A DNA stretch of 52,012 nucleotides, from positions 11,343,901 to 11,395,912 of the forward strand of contig NC_057751.1 of NCBI RefSeq assembly GCF_004010195.1. The letters are read 5' to 3'. This document shows positions 2,525-52,012 of the stretch, in pieces; within the stretch, counting starts at the first letter, position 1; each line of letters opens with the position of its first letter. The notes below the pieces were generated by a model. It saw only the letters and a program-made list of their open reading frames with translations, was not told the DNA's origin and made no database searches. The stretch comes from Chiloscyllium plagiosum. Lineage: Eukaryota. A program made the translations under genes and the position numbers.

Positions 2525-3010
2525 CCATCGTGGGAGTTACCATTCACCAGAATCTGAACTGGACCAGCCTCGTGCACTCTACGACTTCAAGAGCAGGTCA
2601 GAGGATAGGACAACTGCGGTGAGTAACACACCTTCTGACTCCACAAAGCCCTTCCACCAATGTCAAGGCACAAGTCAGGAGGATGTTGGAATATTCTCCA
2701 TTTGCCTGGATGAGTGCAGCCCTAACAACACTCATAAAGCTTGACACCAACCAGTCTGCTTGATTGGAAGCATATCTGCCAACTTCATTGTTTCTTCACC
2801 ACCAATGAACAGTGGCAGCAATAGATGCCATCTCTGAGATGCACTGTCACAATTGATCAAGTCTTTTTCGACAGCACCTTCCAATTTGAAGGACAAGGGC
2901 AGCAGAAACAGGGGAACACCACTACTTGCAAGCTCCCCTCCAAGCCAATCACCATCCTGAATTGGAAATATATAGCTGTCCCTTCAGTATTGTGGTCAAA
3001 ACCCTCTCCC
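2525..3010 (+). mobile_element. L2/CR1-group LINE 3' fragment (RT thumb region), degenerate
   Basis: Reads approximately GVTIHQNLNWTS...RAGQRIGQLR.VTHLLTPQSPST..KAQVRRMLEYSPFAWMSAALTTLIKLDT, a non-LTR RT C-terminal pattern. Confidence 0.75.
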
Positions 3011-3195
3011 TCAAGACCAGCACCCCTCTGTCTCCTATCCTGCACCACCTCTCCCTACTATTGAAGTCCAGTTCAAAATTGCATGAACTTCCTTGTGCAT
3101 GTGCAGCACTATATTTGCAAAGGACATTACCCATAAAGTCCACGTGATGATATTGAGTTTGGAACTGGGCACATGCATGTACCTGAATAAGCACA

Positions 3196-4474: not shown

Positions 4475-5269
4475 TCTCGGAGGGCAGTCTCAAACAATGA
4501 CGAGACAGAGTACAGGAAAGAGATTGAGTGCTTAGCTGCATCAACATTAGCAAAATGAAGGAGCTGGCCATTGACTTCAGGAGGGCACAGCCTTGTCTGC
4601 ATCATTAGTACGAGATGGAGATGGTTGAGAATGTCAAGTTGCTGGGAGTGACGAGTACCAACAATCTGTCCTGGTCCACCCATGTTGACACTAAGGTCAA
4701 GAAAGAACAGCAATGCCTCTACTTCCTCAGGAGGCTGAGGAAATTCGGCATGTCCGCAAGGACTCCGAGCAATTTTTGTCGATGCCCCATTGAAAGCATC
4801 CTGGCTGGTCGCATCACAGCTTGGTATGGCGAGCACTGTTCCCAAGCCCCCAAGAAACTACAGAGAGTTGTGAACACAGCTCAGTCCATCAAGAAAACCA
4901 GCTTCCCATCCTTTTACATCATCTATACTTCCCATTGCATCGGGAAAGCAACCAACGTAATCCAAGACCCCTCCCACCCCGGTTATGTGCTCTTCCACCC
5001 TCTTCCGTTGGTCAGAAAACATCACAGTTTGTATGCACATACCAACAGATTCAAGAACAACTTCATTTCTGCTATTCCCAGACTTTTGAATGGACCTCTC
5101 AAATTTTAAATTTCCTGTTGATCTCACTCTCTGTGTACCTTCCCTGTAGCCGTAACATTGTACTCTTCACTCTGCTCTACTACCCTCATGCGATTTGTAC
5201 AGTATGATATGCCTGTACTGCATGCTAAACAGAACTTCTCACTGTACTGAGGTACAAATCCAATCAAAT
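4475..5269 (+). mobile_element. 5'-truncated Rex1/Babar-clade LINE (RT C-terminus, DUF1891-like) with 9-bp TSD
   Basis: ORF 4615..5109 ..KLLGV..NNLSWSTH..KKEQQCLYFLRRLRKFGMS..DPSHPG..RFKNNF; (AAATC)-type tail; CAATTATCT at 4466-4474 and 5270-5278. Confidence 0.88.
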
Positions 5270-6059
5270 CAATTATCTGGTTCGACCTGGGTCAGATATG
5301 AGGGGATTACAATGGGTCCACGTACTCTAACTGGGAGGAGGAGAAGAGTTCCTGCTCCTAATTGTTATCCAGTGACCCTGCACTTGAAAGGGAGCACAGA
5401 CATGGTCAGGCTCAGCCCTAGTACTGCACATGGTGGATTAGCCATCACACACCAGGAGGGAGTCAGCATCTGCCAGAGAGATTGAGAGGAACTGGAAGAT
5501 TGTTCCTAACTTCACACAAACCACAAGTGCTTGCCTCAAAAACAAATCAGTTCAAAGACAAGACCTGCTGCCATCGAAAGCAGCAGGAAGTGTTAAATCA
5601 TCTGACATGACAGAGAAGGGCACGTGATCAAATGCTTACACAAAGACAGAGGTAATTTTGATTGAATATTTCAACATAACAGAAAGAATGAGCAATGCTC
5701 GGAAGAATTTGCCTGTTGAGAGATGTTGGTGCAATGCCAACTGCTCCTAGCTCACTGGAATGACACCTTCCAGCCTGAATTAATGTTAATAACTGGAGAT
5801 CAGCTCAACATCTCAGCGTTTAACTGCTCCAGCAATCACTGTCATGTCGGAGGCATTGATGATACAATCAGAAGGATATGCTCAATTCCGCTGTCCAGAT
5901 AACTTGAATCGATTGCAGGATGATTCACTGAATAACTAGATTAAGATGTGCAACTCATCCAATGATTCCTCTCTCCAACTGGCCTGTCCACTTTCCCCCT
6001 GACAGCCGTACTATACAGCTGCTGCCCAGCCATTCTTCCCTGTCATTGTTTCAAATAAT

Positions 6060-6248
6060 TCTTTCACATGCTGGTGTCATTGGCAAGGCCAGCTTTTTTG
6101 TTGGCACAACATTAATTGTGCTTGAAAATTTGACAATGTGTTGTCCTCTTCAACAGTTGCAGTCCGTGTGGTGTGGGTGCACCCACAGAGCTGTGAGGAA
6201 GGGAGTCGGACCCAGTGATTGTGAAGAAACGATGATATGGGTCCAAGT
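6060..6248 (-). mobile_element. 3' end of L2/CR1-group LINE (same family as 2525-3010); continues at 9053
   Basis: gacccagtgattgtgaagaaacgatgatatgggtccaagt is the reverse complement of the 2955-3000 segment. Confidence 0.65.
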
Positions 6249-9052
6249 TGTGGCAGTCAGCGAGTGGGCCCAGTGTGGACTCAAGTGGGCCCAGTATGGA
6301 CTCATGTGGGCCCAGTGAGGACTCAATGGGTCCAATGCGGACACATGTGGGCCCAGCGTGGCCTCAAGTGGGCCCAGTATGGACTCAAGTGGGCCCAGTG
6401 AGGACTCATGTGGGCCCAGTGTGGACTCAGGTGGGCCCAGCATGGCCTCAAGTGGGCCCAGTGTGGACTCAAGTGGGCCCAGCGTGGCCTCAAGTGGGCC
6501 CAGTGAGGACTCAAATGGGCCAAGCGAGGACTCAAATGGGCCCAGCGTGGACACATGTGGGCCCAGCGTGGCCTCAAGTGGGCCCAGTGTGGACTCAAGT
6601 GGGCCCAGTGAGGACTCAAGTGGGCCCAGTGTGGACTCAGGTGGGCCCAGCGTGGCCTCAAGTGGGCCCAGTGTGGACTCAAGTGGGCCCAGCGTGGCCT
6701 CAAGTGGGCCCAGTGAGGACTCAAATGGGCCAAGCAAGGACTCAAATGGGCTCAGCGTGGACACATGTGGGCCCAGTGTGGCCTCAAGTGGGCCCAGTGT
6801 GGACTCAAGTGGGCCCAGTGAGGACTCAAGTGGGCCCAGTGTGGACTCAAGTGGGCCCAGTGTGGCCTCAAGTGGGCCCAGCGTGGCCTCAAGTGGGCCC
6901 AGTGAGGACTCAAATGGGACAAGCGAGGACTCAAATGGGCCCAGCGTGGATACATGTGGGCCCAGCGTGGCCTCAAGTGGGCCCAGTGTGGACTCAAGTG
7001 GGCCCAGTGAGGACTCAATGGGACCAATGTGGCCTCAAGTGGGCCCAGTGTGGACTCAAGTGGGCCCAGTGCAGACTCAAGTGGGCCCAGTGCGGACTCA
7101 AGTGGGCCCAGTGTGGACACATATGGCCCAGCATGGCCTCAAGTGGGCCCAGTGAGGACTCAAGTGGGCCCAGCATGGACACATATGGGCCCAGCGTGCC
7201 CTCAAGTGGGCCCAGTATGGACTCAAGTGGACCCAGTGAGGACTCAATGGGTCCAATACGGACTCAAGTGGGCCCATTGTGGACTCAAGTGGGCCCACTG
7301 AGGACTCAGGTGGGCACAGTGTGGACTCAAGTAGGCCCAGTGAGGACTTAAGTGGGCCCAGCGTGGACACATGTGGGCCCAGCTTGGCCTTAAGTTGGCC
7401 CAGCGTGGACTCAAGTGTGGCCAATGAGGACTCAATGGGTCCAATGCGGACTCAAGTGGGCCCAGTGTGGACTCAAGTGGGACCAGTGTGGACTCAAGAG
7501 GGCCTAATGCAGACTCAAGTGGGCCCAGCATAGACTCAAGTGGGCCCAGTGTGGACTCAAGTGGGCCCAGTGAGGACTCAAGTGGGCCCAGTGTGGACTC
7601 AAGATAGCCTAATGCAGATTCAAGTGGGCCCAGCATGGACTCAAGTGGGCCCAATGTGGACTCAGGCCCAGTGTGGACTCAAGTGGGCCCAGTGTGGACT
7701 CAAGTGGGCCCACTGAGGACTCAAGTGAGCCCAGTGTGGACACATGTGGGCCCAGCGTGGCCTGAAGTGGGCCGAGTGTGGACTCAAGTGGGCCGAGTGT
7801 GGATTCAAGTGGGCCCAGTGAGGACTCAAGTGGGCCCAGTGTGGACTCAGATGGGCCCAGTGTGGACTCAAGTGGGCCCAGTGTGGACTCAAGAGGGCCT
7901 AATGCAGACTCAAGTGGGCCCAGCGTGGACACATGTGGGCCCAGTGTTGGACTCAAGTGGGCCCAGTGAGGACTCAAGTGAGCCCAGTGAGGACTCAAGT
8001 GGGCCCAGTGAGGACTCAAGTGGGCCCAGTGTGGACTCAAGAGGGCCTAATGCAGACTCAAGTGGGCCCAGTGTGGACACATGTGGGCCCACTGTTGGAC
8101 TCAAGTGGGCCCAGTGAGGACTCAAGTGAGCCCAGTGAGGACTCAAGTGGGCCCAGTGAGGACTCAAGTGGGCCCAGTGTGGACTCAGATGGGCCCAGTG
8201 TGGACTCAGGTGGGCCCAGCTTGGACTCAAGTGGGCCCAGTGAGGACTCATGTGGGCCCAGTGAGGACTCAAGTGGGCCCAGTTTGGACTCAAGAGGGCC
8301 TAATGCAAACTCAAGTGGGCCCAGTGAGGACTCAAGTGGGCCCAGCATGGACTCAAGTGTGGCCAATATGGACTCAATGGGCTCAGTGTGGACTCAAGGT
8401 GTTGGTGCCAGAGACGGGTTTAGGTTCTTGCATGGTTGAGGCAGTCCCACTACTGACTCATGGGTGCTGCAGTGGGGTTCCTGGCAGCGTCTGTTTCCAG
8501 CAAAGATTCATGGAGGTGGTAGTGGAGACCGGTTTGGCCCCAGTACGAGACCCAGCAGCATCAGCAGAGGCCACATTGGCGAGGTGGGCCTGTAGTGGAC
8601 TTACAATGCCCTCAGAATCAAGTTTGAGCCAGTCCGATACCCCGTAGCATCGGTGGCATGTGCATGGGTGAGGTCCATCGAGGACTCATGGTGATGAGGG
8701 TGTTGATGGAGGTGAGGTGGTGCTGAAGAGTGGTGACTCTTAATCCAGCAGTGGTAGAATGGCAAGGGTGCTTGTGTCCATGACCGATGGCAGAGCACTT
8801 CGCAGGAAGAACTGTAAAGTTGAATACATCTTCTTTATTTTTCTGTCTTTATTTTCTGTGTCTTGGCTTTATTTTGTATTATAAGATGGCACTGGAGATT
8901 GGCAACACTGTACAACACTTTTCACTGTAATTTGTTACAAAACACAGTGAGAGGTGTTGTGTAGTGCTGCCAGTCTCCAGTGCTATCTTAAAACTTTTGT
9001 AACAAAATGCACATGACAATAAGTAAATCAAATCAAAGATATCAATCAAATC
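6249..9052 (+). mobile_element. Putative composite non-autonomous retroposon: VNTR + GC-rich body + Rex/Babar-like 3' tail
   Basis: Interrupts a LINE that resumes colinearly at 9053; ends catgacaataagtaaatcaaatc..aatcaaatc; shares acttttcactgta with the LINE tail at 5234-5269. Confidence 0.6.
6264..8398. repeat. 21-bp minisatellite, ~100 units, consensus GTGGGCCCAGTGTGGACTCAA
   Basis: Directly visible; produces the VGPVWTQ / SSGPSVD / LGPLEST periodic ORFs. Confidence 0.98.
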
Positions 9053-9200
9053 AAAGTCAGAATGCTGTGTGACTTGGAGGGGAACATTGAAGCCTAGGTG
9101 TTCCAATGCATTTTCTCCTGTTGACCTTTCAGGTTGTGAAAGAGTTGACATTGTGAAGTAGAGAATCCTGTAAATGGTACACATAGAGTCACAGTGCCAC
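9053..9200 (-). mobile_element. Continuation of the L2/CR1-group LINE split at 6248
   Basis: aagtcagaatgctgtgtgacttggaggggaac..ggtgttcc is the reverse complement of ~2912-2962 (ggaacacc..ctcccctccaagccaatcaccatcctga); further pieces at ~9460-9590 and ~10221-10325. Confidence 0.65.
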
Positions 9201-9591
9201 AATGTTAATTGTTAACAATGCTTTATTTGGAGAACGCCTCTGGTGTAATGGAACTTCCCTGAGGCTACACAAATGCAGAGGGCAGATAGCCAAATGTTTG
9301 GTGAAAGACGTAGGTTTTAAAGAAGGAAAGAGAGAGTGAGGGAACTCCAAAGATGAGGGGTGAGTTAGCTGAAGACACAGCCACCACTGATGCGGTGATA
9401 CAAATCAGAGATACTCAAGAAGCACAGAAGCTGTGGATTGTTGTCTTGTGATGTTTTCACGTCTTGGACCCTGACTCTCATCAGGAATGATTGAGCAAAG
9501 GCATTAATGAGCTTTGGAGATGAGTGATGCTGACAGAACCAAAACTGAGCATTGGTGGATTAGTTATTGGCCACTATGAATCGCTGCATAT

Positions 9592-10220
9592 TGTGATGAT
9601 GCTCTTCCTTTAACAAGGTTAGCTTGTCCTTAGTTATTTTTTTAGAGGTGTTGTAAACACATAGATTTCCAAAATGTCTGGGTTTATCTGCTTGAAGAAG
9701 CTTTTAAGTTTTTAAACAATCACTTGGATAATGGAAGGGGAGGGGCCAGCTCTCCCATCTCAGCTTTCCTCTGGTTTGGTTTGGCTTTAGCCTTGGCATG
9801 AGTTCGGCTTTTTTGAGGCTGCTGGTCAAAGAAACAGGTACATGGAAGAAGGCGTTCCATACCGAATCTCTCTGTCATCTCTCTCTCTCCTGTAAGAACC
9901 TGTGTTTGATTTTACCTTTTGTGCAAAGGACTGTTTGTGGGGATTGTTGCGAGTATTTGGAACAGGGTCATTAAGTTGGGGTAGTCTGTTGAGTTTTTGG
10001 ATAGGTTAAATAGTTAAGTTATTCTATATTTGGATCTCTTTTGTTTGTGTTTCATTCAGTAATCTTGCAAATAAATTTGGTTTTGTTTAAAACTAAATGG
10101 TTGGACCAGCTGCATCACACCTGGAATATCCACTTTACAGCTACTTAAGACAACGAGTAAAGTTAGGGTCCGGGCTACGTTCTTGAAATGTTTTGAGGGG
10201 GTCTGGCCTGGTCCACAAAA
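9592..10220 (+). mobile_element. Solo-LTR-like sequence
   Basis: Starts TG, has AATAAA near 10070, 3' end ..ttagggtc..tgagggggtctggcctggtcca resembles 24307-24362 reversed; interrupts LINE sequence; no clear TSD. Confidence 0.55.
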
Positions 10221-10960: not shown

Positions 10961-11594
10961 GATCCGAGGGGTTCATTCAATAAAATGAGCTGAAATTGTG
11001 GTTCATGGAGATCAGGTGGACAGCCCTGAACCTGAAACCTGAAGGGTGGGAGCAGGCTAAGGCTTCTGGGTGATGTTCCCTATCTCCCTATCTGCAGGGT
11101 TTGGTTCATCTATCTTCTTCATACATCTTCACATTCACTCTTCCTCCCTTGGGGAACGGCCTGCAGGCTGGTTAGTCTGTCAAAGGGCATCATAGGCTCT
11201 CTTTCCATGGCCACAACGTTATGAAGACTACTAGAGCAGAGTCTCCAGCCCAGAGATAAGGACACTACTGCTAAGTGACAAGATCTCCATGGGTTTGTCC
11301 AGGAAGAGTGATGATAATGTGGAAGGTGGAAACTGTTTCCACTGAAGAGGAAATGTCTAGGACAAGGGAGGGGATATCACATCAAAATCAGAGCGACCAC
11401 ACACACACACAGTGGCAGATTGTGGAACCTGCTCCCAGAAAGAGCAGTAGGTACGACCTCAGGTAGTCATTCTTTTTTCCACGAGTTTACAAAAGAAAAC
11501 TAAAAAAACGACCCAAAAGTATAAACATTGATATACAGTTAAATCTTAAATAAATGATAACCAGAATCTATCAAACAAGAAAACAGAAATACCA

Positions 11595-11860
11595 AGAGAA
11601 AAAAAAAATCCAACGGCTAACACATAAATTGAGCAGTAATACATGCTCGGAATGTGTTAACATCAGATCACAACACAAACCCGTATTTATCCAAAACATC
11701 AGGCGCATAGAGCATATAAAATTCACAGAGAAAAAAAAAATCCAACGGCTAACACATAAATTGAGCAGTGATATACATGCTCGGAATGTGTTAACATCAG
11801 ATCACAACACAAACCCGTATTTATCCAAAACATCAGGCGCATAGAGCATATAAAATTCAC
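11595..11860. repeat. Tandem duplication of ~132 bp inside the HAL1-like 3' region
   Basis: 11595-11726 and 11727-11860 nearly identical (agtaatacatg vs agtgatatacatg). Confidence 0.95.
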
Positions 11861-12488
11861 AAAAATAAAAGCTCTTTAGTACATTCAGATCAATATAGTA
11901 AAAAAGCTATTTCTAAATAGTAAAAAAAGTATAAAACATATTTAAATAGAGATCTTCCCCCTTATTCCCAGGGGGCATCACTTCCTTTCCAAAAAACCCT
12001 TCATAACCTCTCCCAACCAGTGCCCCACCCTTGACCCAGGCACCCCACGATAGGATAAAGAAAATTCAAGTACACTACTGAACTAGAACTAACAGTGAGT
12101 ACTCTATTCCCCCACCCACACCAATACTTGGATATATTTGGTAATGTTAATACCATGTATGAACATATATGACTGTAAAATTACAGTCTCAGCAAATAAT
12201 AATTAAATATATTAATACAAAATAACAGGGGAAACAACCCTGCTCCCAAGGACAAAGATAAAATAAGACAAGGTAGCCACCTTCCCCCCAACTACATTAA
12301 CTAGACCTCCTGGCCTATATATATATATATATTATATATATTAAAAAAAAGTGGGGGGAAGGAAATTGCTAAGTAAAGGATGACTAAATAAACCCTTCTT
12401 CCCACCCCCCGGAGATAATATTAAACAGTAAGATAACGAAAGGAGAAAAAAGGGGGGTAAACCGGGGTGGGGATAGGGCAAAACAACA

Positions 12489-13230
12489 TCAATTAACTCT
12501 TATAATTTGTCTAAGAGAGTCCAAAAGTTCCTTGGCCTTGTCCGGTGATCCGAAGTTATACACGGACCCTTCATGGCTGAAGCGTAGTATAGCTGGGTAG
12601 CACAAGGAGTATTGAATGTTTAAATCCCTTAAACACTCCTTTGCTTCATCAACCGCCTTCCTCTTTCGAACCAAAGCTGGGGAAAAGTCCTGAAATAACA
12701 TAATCTTGGATCCTTTATGAGTCATGGCTTGTGGATCTTTTCCAAGATTTCTGGAGGCTTCCAAGAGCATCTGCCTCACCTTATAGCTCTGCAGCCGGAA
12801 CAGGACCGGGAGGGGGGCGCTGGTTCGAGCGTATTGCAACCCGGTAGGCCCATTCTACCCTTACCTGGCCTGATCCAGCCTTCAGATTCAATAACCACAG
12901 AAGCCACTGTTCAAGGAATCTTGTCAGCTGGCCTTCTTCTTCCTGTTCGGGAAGGTCCAGCAAATGAATATTTTTTTCGACGACCTGGCATTCAATTTCT
13001 TCGATGTCTCGGCCGTGCTTTTGTCACGCGGCTGAGAGTGAATTCCACCGACTTCAGGACTCTTCTATGAAAGCATCGATCTTCACGTCGAATTTGAAGA
13101 TTATTTCCGCGAGACTCGCCACCGTAGGCAAATCCCCTGGGGGGGCTGCGGACGCCTCTGCTGCAGCTGGGGAGGGTCGGGGGGAGGCTCCTGCCTGCTG
13201 AGAGCTGCGGGCTCCTTTCCCCCTAGTCAT
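12489..13230 (-). pseudogene. Disrupted L1 ORF1p (Transposase_22-like RRM + CTD)
   Basis: ATG at 13230 (MTRGKGARSSQQAG..); later ..LPEQEEEGQLTRFLEQWL..VEWAYRV..PVLFRLQSYKVRQ..IMLFQDFSPALVRKRK..YSLCYPAILR; internal stop and frameshifts. Confidence 0.8.
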
Positions 13231-14124
13231 TTTTACAGGAGACTGAACTGTATAAATTTAGTACTAAACCACTAATTACATTAAATAAAAACCATTTTTA
13301 GTTGATTTTGTGAGTGTGGTGGGGGAGGGTGGTCCACTTTGCCTAGGTCTAGGGAGAAGCACTATAGACTCAGACTTGCTGAGTCGCCGCCATCTTGGAT
13401 CTCCCCAGGTAGTCATTTTAAAGTTGAGATCCGGAGACTTTAGCTGGACAAGATTGGAAAAGGTTCTGGAGCCTTGGAGCAGTTGGATTGAGTTGTAACA
13501 TCAGTGAAGGGTGAGGCAGAGCTGAGGGGCTGAACAACCCCCGTTCCATTGCTGTGTTGCTAAGTCAGCGAAGGCCTCCTGGCATGTTTGGAATCTGGTT
13601 CTGTGACATTTATAGGGCTAATTGAGAGTACAAACCCACATGGACAAGAGGATAAAACGGATGGCTCCAGACCAAGGGACAAAGCGCTCTATATCTGTGC
13701 TGCAGTTTCCATCATAGTCAATGTTAGTGGTTTGTGGACAAAATAGAAAGTGACTTGTCGAACAAATTGAAATAGCAGATTATATGTTTCGGGCCAATCA
13801 ACGGTTTTGATAAACCTGGCAATTTGCTCTGATTGATAGTCAGAATTCAGCCTGACCTCAAAGAATGGATGCAGGGGACAATTGAAAGACTTGATTTGAT
13901 GTCCTCTTCTCTGTGAGAAGTTTGACCTTTCCACCACTGTGAGAAAATTCAAATGCTATGCTGATGTCAGCTCTGAAAGTGGCATGACATTTCGTGACCA
14001 TCTGTGATCCATGCCTCGGTGTGTCATGTCATGTCATGTTATCCCACCTTTTCCATTTTCAGAGCTGAAACTGTGGAGGGGAATTTCCAGGTTTCTGCTT
14101 AACACAGTGCAAACTGGGCTAAAG

Positions 14125-32402: not shown

Positions 32403-32532
32403 ATTTTTTTAATATAGATGTTTTTACAAGTTTACAAATAAAAAAAAACACAAGTACAAACACTAATATACAATTAAATCTTAAATCTTAAATAAATAAT
32501 AGCCAAAACCTGTCAAACAAAAAAGAAGAGAG
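32403..32532 (-). mobile_element. 5'-truncated 3' end related to the 11472-13405 element
   Basis: agtttacaaa..agtacaaacactaatatacaattaaatcttaaa..ccaaaacctgtcaaacaa matches 11485-11578; flanked by gccattttt on both sides. Confidence 0.65.
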
Positions 32533-37775: not shown

Positions 37776-38335
37776 GGGGCAGCACGGTGGCTCAGTGATT
37801 AACACTGCTATCTCCCAGCACCAGGGACCTGGGTTTGATTCCACCCTTGGGCAAATGTCTGTGTGGGGTTTACACATTCTCTCCATGTCTGTGTGGGTCT
37901 GATTTCCTCTGGGTGCTCTGATTTCCTCCCACAGTCCAAACATGTGCAGGCTAGGTGGATTGGCCATTGGAAATTGCCCAGAGTGTGCAGGGATTAGCCA
38001 CGGGAAATACAGGGTGATGGGTCCAGAGTCAGGGGCTGGGTCTGGGTGGGATGCTCTTCAGAGGATTGGTGCAGATTTGATGGGCTGAATGGACTCTTTG
38101 CACACTATAGGGATTCTATTTTCAAAGGTACTGGGAAATATTGGGTGACAGGGATTGGGTCTGGGTGGGATACTCCGTGGAGGGTTGGTGTGGACTTGAT
38201 GGGCTGAATGGCCTTTTTGCACACTGTAGGGATTCTATTTTTAAAGGTGCTGGGAAATGCAGGGTGACAGGGATTGCAGAGGGCTGGTGTGGACTCAATG
38301 GGCCGAACGGCCTGCTTTCACACATGGGGATTCTG
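37776..38335 (+). mobile_element. HE1-like V-SINE with triplicated 3' segment
   Basis: ggcagcacggtggctcagtga..gggtttgattcc head; gggaaat..gggtga blocks at ~38001, 38133, 38252. Confidence 0.85.
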
Positions 38336-42743: not shown

Positions 42744-43479
42744 ATCACTGTGTAAATGGACAATGTTCAGGGGACCCAGGGCCTGAGAATCCGGAAGCAG
42801 GCGTGGGGTGGAAGACCAGGAGTAGGGCAGTGCACTGCATTGGTGGCAAAGGCCATTAAATAGTCCCTGCCCATGGGCAATGCAGTTAGGGTGGCCCCTC
42901 ATAGAGGGCAAGAGAGAGAGCATGACAGTTCTGGGCTGAATTGAAACTTACAGGGAGAGCTGAATTAACTCAGTTGGCTGGTTTACAATATAAAACTGGG
43001 GAGCATGAGCATGGGTTGAATTCCCGCACTGGCTGGAAATTCCAACAAACTTGCTCCGTCTCACATCGTACCCGAGATGGCGTGAACATCAGGTTAAACT
43101 CTCCACACCAGTGAGAGAGTGGGGCGACACTGACTTCACCGTGGGGAGCACCATAGGTACCAGGCTCCTTTTTGTATCCACTTGGCACAAGGCAGCTGCT
43201 CTTCCATTGAAGCCCAAGTGCTGGCTCTTTAGCCTGCCCTTGCTCACCCAGGAAGCCATGCGGCATGAACATGAGGAAGTTCTGAGTCTTGCAGACTCCT
43301 TGCTCCCTCTGGAGGTGATGATTACAATGACAATACCACCACCAAGATCCCTCAGACTGTGGAGCCCTGTGGGATTTCTGAAGTTACGAGAGGTGCTATA
43401 TAAATTCAAGTTGTCTCTTTTCTTGCACCGTGACTCCAGAAAGCCATGTTATCCTGCAACATGCAATATACGGACAGGG

Positions 43480-44290
43480 AGGTCAGAAAGTGTGCAAACA
43501 CCAATGTGCTTTACACAGACAGTGAGTTCAGGAAGTGTGCAAACACCAACATGCTATACAAAGAGAGTCTGTTCAGGAAGTGTGCAAACATCAATGTGCT
43601 ATACACAGACAGTGTGTTCAGAAAGTGTGCAAATATCGATGTACTATACACAGTGTGTTCAGGAAGTGTGCAAACACCGATATGCAAACATCAACATAAT
43701 ATACACAGTGTGTTCAGGAAGTGTGCAAACATCAATGCGCTATACACAGACAGTGTGTTCAGGAAGTATGCAAGCACCGATATGCAAGCATCAACATACT
43801 ATACACAGACAATGTGTTCAGGAAGTGTGCAAACATCAACATGCTATACAAAGAGAGTCTGTTCAGGAAGTGTGCAAACATCAATGTGCTACACACAGAT
43901 GGTGTGTTCAAGAATTGTGCAAACACTGATGTGCTGTACACAGCATGTTCAGGAAGTGTGCAAACACCAATGTGCTGTATACAACAGCGAGTTCAGGAAG
44001 TGTGCAAACACCGATGTGCTGTACACAGACAGTGTGTTCAGGAAGTGTGCAAACACCAATATGCAAACATCAACATACTATACACAGAGAGTCTGTTCAG
44101 AAAGTGTGCAAACATCAATGTGCTACACACAGATGATGTGTTCAAGAAGTGTGCAAACACCGATGTGCTGTACACATCGGCGTGTTCAGGAAGTGTGCAA
44201 ACACTGATGTGCTATACACAGACGGCATGTTCAGGAAGTGTGCTATCCAGAAAGTGTGTTCAGGAAGTGTGCAAACACTGACGTGCTACA
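43480..44290. repeat. ~45-bp minisatellite (~18 units), core GTGTTCAGGAAGTGTGCAAACA
   Basis: Direct reading; explains the Cys-rich periodic ORFs 43051..43929, 43446..44207 and 43721..44281. Confidence 0.95.
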
Positions 44291-44615: not shown

Positions 44616-47600
44616 TAGAGTCATAGAGATGTACAGCACGGAAACAGACCCTTTGGTCCAACCCATCCATGCCGACCAGATATCCCAACCCAATCTAGTC
44701 CCACTTGCCAGTGCCCGGCCCATATCCCTCCAAACCCTTCCTATTCATATACCCATCCAAATGCCTCTTAAATGTTGCAATTGTACCAGCCTCCACCACA
44801 TCCTCTGGCAGCTCATTCCATACACGTACCACCCTCTGTGTGAAAACATTGTCCCTTAGGTCCCTTTTAAATCGTTCCCTACTCACCCAAAACCTGTGCC
44901 CTCTAGTTCTGGACTCTCCGACCCCAGGGAAAAGACTTCGCCTATTTCCCCTATCCATGCCCCTCATAATTTTGTAAACCTCTATAAGGTCACCCCTCAG
45001 CCTCCGACGCTCCAGGGAAAACAGCCCCAGCCTGTTCAGCATCTCCCGGTCGCTCAAATTCTCTTACCCTGGCAAGATGCTTTTCTGAATCCTTTCAAGT
45101 TTCACAACATATTTCCGATAGGAAGGAGACCAGAATTGCACGCAATATTCCAACAGTGGCCTCACCAATGTCCTGTACAGCTGCAACATGACCTCCCAAC
45201 TCCTGTACTCAATACTCTGACCAATAAAGGAAAGCATACCAAACGCTTTCTTCACTATGCTATCTACCTACGACTCCACTTTCAAGGAGCTATGAACCTG
45301 CACTCCAAGGTCTCTTTGTTCAGCAACATTCCCGAGGACCTTACCATTAAGTGTATAAATCCTACCAAGATTTGTTTTCCCAAAATGCAGCACCTCGCAT
45401 TTATCTGAATTAAACTCCATCTCCACATCTCAGCCCATTGGCCCATCTGGTCCATATCCTGTTGTAATCTGAGGTAACCCTCTTCGTTGTCCCCTACACC
45501 TCCAATTTTGGGGTCATCTGCAAACTTACAACCGTACCATCAAAATCATTTATGTGAATCACAAAAAGTAGAGGACCCAGCACCGATCCTTGTGGCACTC
45601 CATTGGTCACAGGCCTCCAGTCTGAAAAGTAACCCTCCACCACCACTCTCTGTCTTCTACCTTTGAGCCAGTTCTGTATCCAAATGGCTAGTTCTCCTTG
45701 TATTCCATGAGATCTAACCTTGCTAATCAGTCTCCCATGGGGAACCTTGTCGAACACCTTACTGAAGTCCATATTGATCACATCAACTGCTCTGCCCTCA
45801 TCAATCGTCTTTGTTACTTCTTCAAAAAACTCAATCAAGTTTGTGAGACATGATTTCCCACGCACAAAGCCATGTTGACTATCCCTAATCAGTCCTTGCC
45901 TTTCCAAATACATNNNNNNNNNNNNNNNNNNNNNNNNNNNNNNNNNNNNNNNNNNNNNNNNNNNNNNNNNNNNNNNNNNNNNNNNNNNNNNNNNNNNNNN
46001 NNNNNNNNNNNNNNNNNNNNNNNNNNNNNNNNNNNNNNNNNNNNNNNNNNNNNNNNNNNNNNNNNNNNNNNNNNNNNNNNNNNNNNNNNNNNNNNNNNNN
46101 NNNNNNNNNNNNNNNNNNNNNNNNNNNNNNNNNNNNNNNNNNNNNTTTCAAGATGTCACCATCTATTTCCCCACAGTCTATATCTTCCATATCCTTTTCC
46201 ACAGTAAATACTGATGCAAAATATTCATTTAGTATCTCCTCCATCTCCTGCAGCTCCACACAAAGGCCGCCTTGCTGATCTTTGAGGGGCCCTATTTTCT
46301 CCCTAGTTACCCTTTTGTCCTAAATATATTTGTAAAAACTCTCTGGATTCTCCTTAATTCTTTTTGCCAACGCTATCTCATGTCCCCTTTTTACCCTCCT
46401 GATTTCCCTCTTAAGTATACTCCTACTTCCTTTATACTCTTCTAAGGATTCACTCAATCTATCCTGTCTATACCTGACATATGCTTCCTTTTTCTTGACC
46501 AAACCCTCAATTTTTTTGGTCATCCAGCATTCCCAATACCTACCGGTCTTTCCTTTCACCCTGACAGGTATATACTTTCTCTGGATTCTCGTTATCTCAT
46601 TTCTGAAGGCTTCCCATTTTCCAGCCGTCCCTTTACCTATGAACATCTGCCCCAAATCAGCTTTTGAAAGTTCTTGCCTAATACCGTCAAAATTGGCTTT
46701 TCTCCAATTTAGAACTTCAACTTTTAGATCTGGTCTATCCTTTTCCATCATTATTTTAAATCTAATAGAATTATGGTCGCCGGCCCAAAGTGCTCCCCCA
46801 CTGACACCTCAGTCACCTGCCCTGCCTTATTTCCCAAGAGTAGGTCAAGTTTTGTATCTTCTCCAGTCGGTACTGAATGAGAAAATTGTCTTGTACACAC
46901 TTAACAAATTCCTCTCCATCTAAACCTTTAACACTATGGCAGTCCCAGTCTATGTTTGGAAAGTTAAAATCCCCTACCATAACCACCCTATTATTCTTAT
47001 AGATAGCTGAGATCTCCTGACAAGTTTGTTTCTCAATTTCCCTCTGACTATTATTAGGGGGTCTACAATACAATCCCAATAAGGTGATCATCCCTTTCTT
47101 ATTTCTCTGTTCTACACAAGTAACTTCCCCGGATGTATTTCCGGGAACATCCTCCCTCAGCACAGCTGTAATGTTATCCTTTATCAAAAATGCCACTCCC
47201 CCTCCTCTCTTGCCTTCCTTTCTATCCTTCCTGTCGCATTTCTGTCCTCGAACATTAAGCTGCCAATCCTGCCCATCCCTGAGCCATGTCTCTGTAATTG
47301 CTATGATATCCCAGTCCCATGTTCCTAACCATGCCCTGAGTTCATCTGCCTTCCCTGTTAGGCTCCTTGCATTGAAATAAATGCAGTTTAATTTATTAGT
47401 CCCACCTTGTCCCTGCCTGCCCTGACTGTTTGACTCACTTCTGTTCTCAAATGTACCAGTCTCAGAATGATCTCTTTCCTCCCTATCTCCCTGGGTCCCA
47501 CGCCCCCACCTTACTAGTTTAAATCTTCCTGAGCAGTTTGAGCAAATTTCCCTGCCAGTATATTAGTTCCCTTCCAATTTAGGTGCAATCCATCCTTCTT

Positions 47601-51699: not shown

Positions 51700-52012
51700 C
51701 AACTCTCTCTCCCTGTGCTCCAGCTCCCTCCCTCACTCCCCCTCTCTCTTCCTGTGCTCCAGCTCCCTCCCTCTCTCTTTCTCTTTGTGCTCCTGAACTC
51801 TCTCTCCCCACGTTCCTGCTCGCTGTCTCTCCCCATGTTCCTGCTCTCTGTCTCTCCCCATGTTCCTGCTCTCTGTCTCTCGCCATGTTCCTGCTCGCTG
51901 TCTCTCCCCATGTTCCTGCTCGCTGTCTCTCCCTGACTCTCCCCTCCGCTCTCACTCTCTCCATGCTCTCTCTTTCCCCAAGCTCTCTCTCTCTCTGTCT
52001 GTGTCTCTCTGT
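51700..52012. repeat. CT-rich tandem/low-complexity repeat with ~26-bp units (CCCCATGTTCCTGCTCGCTGTCTCT-like)
   Basis: Direct reading. Confidence 0.9.

Follow-up and report, generated by a model that had tools for sequence, protein, structure and literature searches.

The question raised by this locus is whether a large GC-rich tandem array, found within a retroposon-like insert of a shark genome, is a standing part of a mobile family or the local product of a single copy. The locus belongs to a 52,012-nucleotide window (the whole stretch of Chiloscyllium plagiosum contig NC_057751.1 that was analysed), in which a 2.8-kb insert between 6248 and 9054 interrupts an old minus-strand LINE. The original prediction read the insert as an SVA-like composite, with expansion of the array in place after insertion as an alternative. 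The analysis described here favours a minisatellite that expanded locally on one old copy, belonging to a non-coding family that is abundant and ends in a LINE-type tail; taken as a whole, this scenario is held with moderate confidence. The insert looks like an ordinary case of a repeat on a transposon and is unlikely to be the shark counterpart of the SVA elements of primates; the evidence lends no support to an SVA-like VNTR family.

The interrupted LINE, which is presumably CR1-type, is present on both sides of the insert. Its decayed left piece (6058–6248, minus strand) corresponds to the 3' side and matches 32013–31971 at 77% over 6058–6097, and its right piece spans 9058–9240 (minus strand). 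The flanks were compared with the LINE copy at 2525–3015 in the expected colinear position (2961–3015 for the left flank). The 55 nt that end the left flank have a score of 31, and 4 of 3000 random 55-mers of the window are as good; those that open the right flank have a score of 59, with 1 of 3000 as good. Compared with the same copy, the entire right flank scores 94 (shuffle maximum 49.5) and the entire left flank, with 49 against a shuffle maximum of 53.5, is not significant by itself. The predicted colinearity is upheld by both 55-nt tests and by the right-flank score.

The junction letters give an exact 4-bp target duplication, AAGT, at 6245–6248 and 9054–9057 (plus strand). The longer duplication initially suggested, tc(c/a)aagt, stands only for these four letters, because the remainder shares letters with the repeat of the tail and is interpreted as microhomology. 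A leader of 14 nt (6249–6262, plus strand) precedes the first repeat unit, as foreseen at about 15 nt. No tRNA gene, Rfam match or B-box pattern is detected, and a Pol III head (tRNA, 5S, 7SL) is thus absent in this copy. Self-BLAST reveals no second body, tail or array inside the 52-kb window.

Four of the 24 available sequencing runs were used, three of DNA and one of RNA. The contigs of the DNA runs, which represent three species (X1, X13 and X17, of which 84%, 85% and 64% were read), were placed on 8335–9700 at a likeness of at least 80%. The components that follow the array, all on the plus strand, differ in their recurrence. The array-body junction (8399–8475) has only about single-copy depth. 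The non-coding body (8476–8820, GC 0.55) is patchily common to many loci, with a variant at 8538 in 39, 36 and 26 contigs (X1, X13 and X17, the order kept below). The T-rich tract of the family (8821–8878) has a variant at 8830 in 45, 39 and 31 contigs. The subsequent family 3' region (8879–8935), which ends in ACTTTTCACTGTA, has a variant at 8910 in 104, 100 and 69 contigs, so that the dispersed copies amount to 26–39 contigs at 8538 and 69–104 at 8910 per DNA run. The terminal motif with GACAATAA and the (AAATC)n tail (8995–9053) was delimited by sequence inspection. Every element foreseen for this end, namely the T-rich tract, the acttttcactgta motif, gacaataag and the (AAATC)n end, is present. 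The family copies have an A at 9023, which creates AATAAA at 9018–9023 (96, 96 and 86 contigs), and they end at 9037, running into unrelated flanks (88, 98 and 76 contigs).

Expressed relative to single copy, and bearing in mind that summed contig depth is not a copy number, the body reaches 73, 59 and 57x (8519–8564) and the tail 757, 802 and 255x (8887–8932). A single-copy body and tail had been set beforehand as the outcome contrary to the prediction; both are multi-copy in the three species. Since body and tail are dispersed in all of them, the family exists, and a retroposon-type insertion into an older LINE, with body and tail recurring at many loci in three species, is supported. The placement gave 15 joints among those listed, besides another 145 joints, 1288 loose ends and 4956 pieces. 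Forward skips of 54–280 nt occur among the 15 listed, and the copies consequently share blocks in order yet differ between blocks. A single-copy hole is also observed inside the body at 8605–8607. Beyond the insert, another very abundant repeat starts within 9577–9700, with depth above that of the studied tail and sharp contig starts at 9591–9592 in all three species (51–91 contigs per run among the rows listed).

The body was predicted to be non-coding, and this copy has stops in all six frames; a protein search with one body frame returned 0 of 39 candidates and no hit in 1.84 billion proteins. A metagenome scan with a 19-nt tail motif found three loci, all chance matches of 20–24 nt. The LINE at 4475–5275, which we take to be Rex/Babar-type, has an ORF that carries Pfam ALKBH8_N (E=1.9e-06); no literature tying DUF1891 to retrotransposons was found. 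The proposed similarity between the end of this LINE and the tail of the insert holds for a 13-nt motif, the single solid run of the alignment, and for the AAATC repeats in which both finish, but the score against 5100–5280 is marginal (58; shuffle mean 39, maximum 57.5). The claim of VNTR-like words in the body is likewise weak. The words are borderline against shuffles: the best match, in the multi-copy part at 8583–8603, agrees with the unit at 15/21 positions and is equalled by 50 of 300 shuffles, the body windows with at least 14 unit matches number 13 against a mean of 2.5 (3% of 300 shuffles reach 13), and for three local alignments of the array unit with the body, 46, 35 and 41 of 500 shuffles do as well.

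The tail of this copy contains a rearrangement that the original prediction overlooked, as it falls inside the part of the tail motif abbreviated there to two dots. The segment 8937–8993 (minus strand) is an inverted duplicate of the preceding 57 bp and is 82% complementary to the direct arm at 8879–8935. A loose end at 8995 appears in 97, 104 and 77 contigs (X1, X13 and X17), and its consensus is the direct family sequence ending in ACTTTTCACTGTA. The inverted arm is specific to this locus, because the contigs of other copies continue at 8995 as direct family sequence. The arms differ at 10 of 57 sites (8 transitions), about five times the species distance of 3.5%, and their likeness of only 82% indicates that the copy is old. 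The turn lies within a short self-complementary stretch of the tail, which would suit a fold-back template switch. The fold-back is strong (z = -13). A functional RNA hairpin was considered and rejected, as the fold-back is locus-specific and its arms differ at the sites given above; by a count made by eye, six of the eight transitions permit G-U pairs, which is close to the one half that chance predicts. A Penelope-type fold-back is not favoured either, given that a general Rfam search, which leaves minimal hammerheads to a separate search, gave no ribozyme match and that the family runs directly across the inverted arm. No literature on inverted duplications at LINE 3' ends was found.

The array itself agrees with the predicted 21-bp VNTR of about 2.1 kb. 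Tandem Repeats Finder delimits a GC-rich, non-coding minisatellite at 6263–8398 (plus strand) with 102.1 copies and 82% matches, and its CpG o/e is 0.12. It is not coding, because 9 of 102 units (17, 20 or 22 nt long) break the frame; a coding exon is ruled out by these units, and Pfam returned compositional hits alone (MSSP, MINT_RAM7). Higher-order blocks are present in the array, one of 210 bp starting at 6339 and another of 148 bp starting at 7800. An identical twin exists for 59 of 93 array 21-mers, with a nearest-neighbour distance of 2.3%, whereas static decay would give 26 twins (distance 5.8%) at 9% or 51 (2.9%) at 5%. The best self-match over 200 nt is 196/200 at a lag of 210, which none of 200 unit-order shuffles reaches. 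Two of seven variant features are significantly clustered along the array. A score-based test for higher-order blocks gave 320, below the null maximum of 372 (100 shuffles, mean 210). The array was remodelled where it stands, at the level of the DNA, and in its present form it is younger than the insertion.

The array lies within the insert bounded by the target duplication, that is, in one copy of the dispersed element, and the contigs of X1 and X13 end at it. Next to the array, the stretch 8335–8736 is more polymorphic: in X1, a contig from the same species departs from the window at 7 of about 400 sites, compared with 1 of 698 in the right flank. The window contains two further minisatellites, at 43462–44271 (units of about 45 bp, with higher-order periods) and at 51801–51933 (25-bp units), and hence forms tandem arrays readily. 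Two-copy tandem duplications also occur inside other repeat copies, at 11595–11861 (134 bp, 98%) and 38030–38276 (119 bp, 85%).

The insert can be traced in the related species. In organism B, a single contig spans 8336–9696 and shows 48 differences and 6 gaps relative to the window, and in organism C a contig covers 8847–9700 with 31 differences and 3 gaps. The filled site in B and C implies that the insert and the inverted arm (in B also the last array units) predate the split of about 3.5%; organisms A, B and C separated only after this copy had become fixed. An empty orthologous site, which had been proposed as a check, was looked for in the three DNA runs and the filled site was found instead; no empty allele was seen in X1, X13 or X17, in contigs that lose rare alleles. 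Age also shows in the placed X1 contigs, of which 1194 of 1749 are less than 90% alike to the window.

The RNA run (X21, 2% read) was placed on the same 8335–9700 interval and gave 66 reads, of which 1 matches at 95–99%, 10 at 90–95% and 55 below 90%. None falls on 8335–8472. Loose ends rich in A occur behind 9037 in 8 reads and behind 8941 in 5 reads. Such ends, together with AATAAA, indicate that related copies either end polyadenylated RNAs or provide internal priming sites. The evidence of expression concerns related copies and is not assignable to this one, since 0 of 66 reads match at 99% or more.

The depth profile bears directly on whether the array moves with the family. Over 8381–8426 and 8427–8472, the depth relative to single copy is 1.4 and 1.6 in X1, 1.0 and 1.0 in X13, and 0.9 and 0 in X17. 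This 92-bp junction (8381–8472) is about single-copy, and 50 bp onward the body stands at 57–73x. The bin of the last array units reaches 23, 18 and 11x (X1, X13 and X17). A unitig simulation of this array alone produces 8–107x for that bin over 8 filter settings, so no locus beyond this one is needed for 11–23x; the simulation is uncalibrated and predicts 4–48x at 8381–8426, where about 1x is observed. On these depths the array is unsupported at other copies. A true SVA-like composite family, in which the VNTR is retrotransposed as a standing part of the mobile unit with body and tail, is accordingly judged improbable. It would account for a GC-rich VNTR, a body and a LINE-type tail occurring together within an insert that has a single TSD, for the array units that adjoin the body at the orthologous site in B, for the junction depth present in C, and for the unit-like word in the multi-copy part of the body. 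However, an array in every body-bearing copy should raise the array bin above the body, and it is observed lower, at a level attainable from this locus alone; the junction is single-copy in three species, and none of the 15 joints listed connects array to body at another locus. That the 21-mer array belongs to the mobile family is unsupported, and the alternative of expansion in place after insertion fits the single-copy junction and the remodelling best. A related proposal, equally improbable in our estimate, is that most long copies carry a hypervariable GC-rich tandem module at their 5' side, with a unit more than 20% different by subfamily. An array with such a unit at other copies is invisible at 80% likeness, and because the same cut-off leaves a hole within the body, the junction may merely be more diverged elsewhere. 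If true, primates would not be alone in having a VNTR composite; this one would be driven by a stringent LINE of Rex/Babar type and would seed minisatellites throughout shark genomes.

Two other explanations concern the nature of the family and its 5' boundary. The body and tail may represent a long 3' UTR that belongs to a LINE subfamily of Rex/Babar type, itself autonomous; this would then be an ordinary 5'-truncated copy of it, with a minisatellite grown in its UTR. We consider this unlikely, although it deserves some weight: the LINE-type 3' end with no Pol III head, the loose ends resembling poly(A) that follow the tail in X21 and a tail far deeper than the body, as 5' truncation leads one to expect, are all consistent with it. 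On the other hand, the one such LINE of the window (4475–5275) has about 165 nt from the end of its ORF to the tail and no match to the body, and the block differences among copies suit a loose non-coding family. The remaining explanation, rather unlikely in our judgement, is a chimera in which the family proper begins near 8480, and the leader, the array seed and the 80-bp junction derive from another RNA, or from a second insertion, by template switching. The abrupt drop from about 28–39 contigs at 8503–8538 to single-copy depth at 8475 suggests such a boundary, the listed RNA loose end there (8489, 4 reads) has unrelated upstream letters, and the likeness between array unit and body is borderline. 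Nevertheless, no common start of many contigs near 8480 appears among the tables listed, and neither a second tail nor a second TSD is visible within the insert.

The preferred reading, an old family copy with a locally grown minisatellite, can be set out as a sequence of events. A probably 5'-truncated copy of a non-coding retroposon family, composed of a GC-rich body, a T-rich tract, a LINE-type 3' end and (AAATC)n, would have entered an older LINE through target-primed reverse transcription. The enzymes were most likely those of a LINE of Rex/Babar type able to recognise the common 3' end; the family would be non-autonomous and mobilised in trans by such a partner. The 57-bp inverted duplication may have arisen during insertion or later, through a fold-back template switch in the short terminal hairpin. 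A GC-rich 21-mer near the 5' end of the copy presumably grew from a short seed. Subsequently, slippage and unequal exchange would have homogenised the array in place into the 2.1-kb minisatellite. The copy is now probably an inert fossil.

Other elements of the window are worth describing. At 11460–13417 (minus strand) lies a 1.95-kb element with an exact 12-bp TSD (11460, 13406), an L1/Tx1-like 5' end, a broken ORF1-like frame, an AT-rich non-coding 3' part of about 1 kb and no ORF2. To our mind it resembles the ORF1-only 'half-L1' elements, and Pfam gave no match with two of its fragments. By eye, a similar 3' end seems present near 32410–32530. A long LINE copy contains an assembly gap (run of N) at 45914–46145.

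Known systems offer partial parallels. According to the available text of PMC6947457, minisatellites born inside Alu, B1 and MaLR (LTR) elements are documented. As in those cases, one copy of a dispersed retroelement bears a GC-rich array that would have grown after insertion by slippage and unequal exchange, but the host here is a shark LINE-tailed family and an origin of the seed in the body would rely on a borderline match (PMC6947457). Stringent LINEs read a shared 3' tail, a principle reviewed in PMC3747384, whose available sections cite as LINE-tailed SINEs HE1/HER1 of sharks, HpaI and SlmI with RSg-1 of salmonids, and SINE2-5_NV with Rex1-24_NV. Like them, the family is non-coding and multi-copy, with a LINE-type 3' motif followed by short tandem repeats; unlike them, the copy has no tRNA, 5S or B-box head, and its partner LINE is backed only by the 13-nt motif and AAATC repeats (PMC3747384). 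The LP-SINEs of molluscs, as far as the accessible part of PMC4758252 describes them, share the poly(A) signal directly before the terminal tandem repeats and the lack of a Pol III head, but they have a LINE-derived 5' promoter, and this copy's family is compared without its 5' end. For Rex1, the available text of PMC6274825 reports a conserved 3' UTR followed by oligonucleotide repeats.

The SVA, LAVA, PVA and FVA elements are presented in the available portion of PMC4432496 as hominoid-specific and L1-mobilised, with a CT-hexamer/Alu-like head and VNTR units of 30–50 bp in every member. The insert resembles them in that a GC-rich VNTR, altered at the level of DNA, lies upstream of a separate 3' module, and differs by its 21-bp unit, headless structure, (AAATC)n tail, 4-bp TSD and an array evidenced at one locus only (PMC4432496). 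A constant VNTR at many loci, which characterises SVA and LAVA, is not what the depths indicate, with a single-copy junction and an array at 11–23x against a body at 57–73x. In place of a 5' CT-hexamer and Alu-like domain there is a 14-nt leader only, though truncation could remove a head. The L1 hallmarks, a poly(A) tail and a clear TSD, are replaced by (AAATC)n and 4 bp. Remodelling of the VNTR in place is common to both and does not discriminate, since it also occurs in true SVA VNTRs (PMC4432496, available text).

No description of the LINE-tailed family was found in the literature; repeat libraries (Dfam, Repbase) and supplements lie beyond that search, and the family may be catalogued there. 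Unclassified repeats represent 10.8% of the whale shark genome in the available text of PMC8455134. Only if arrays were present at many copies would the locus overturn the specificity of VNTR composites to hominoid primates, as it is stated in the accessible part of PMC4432496. The locus offers a clear case, in a shark, of a large minisatellite carried by a retroposon copy. It also directs attention to a LINE-tailed family, non-coding and abundant, and is of use for repeat libraries and as a marker common to three species.
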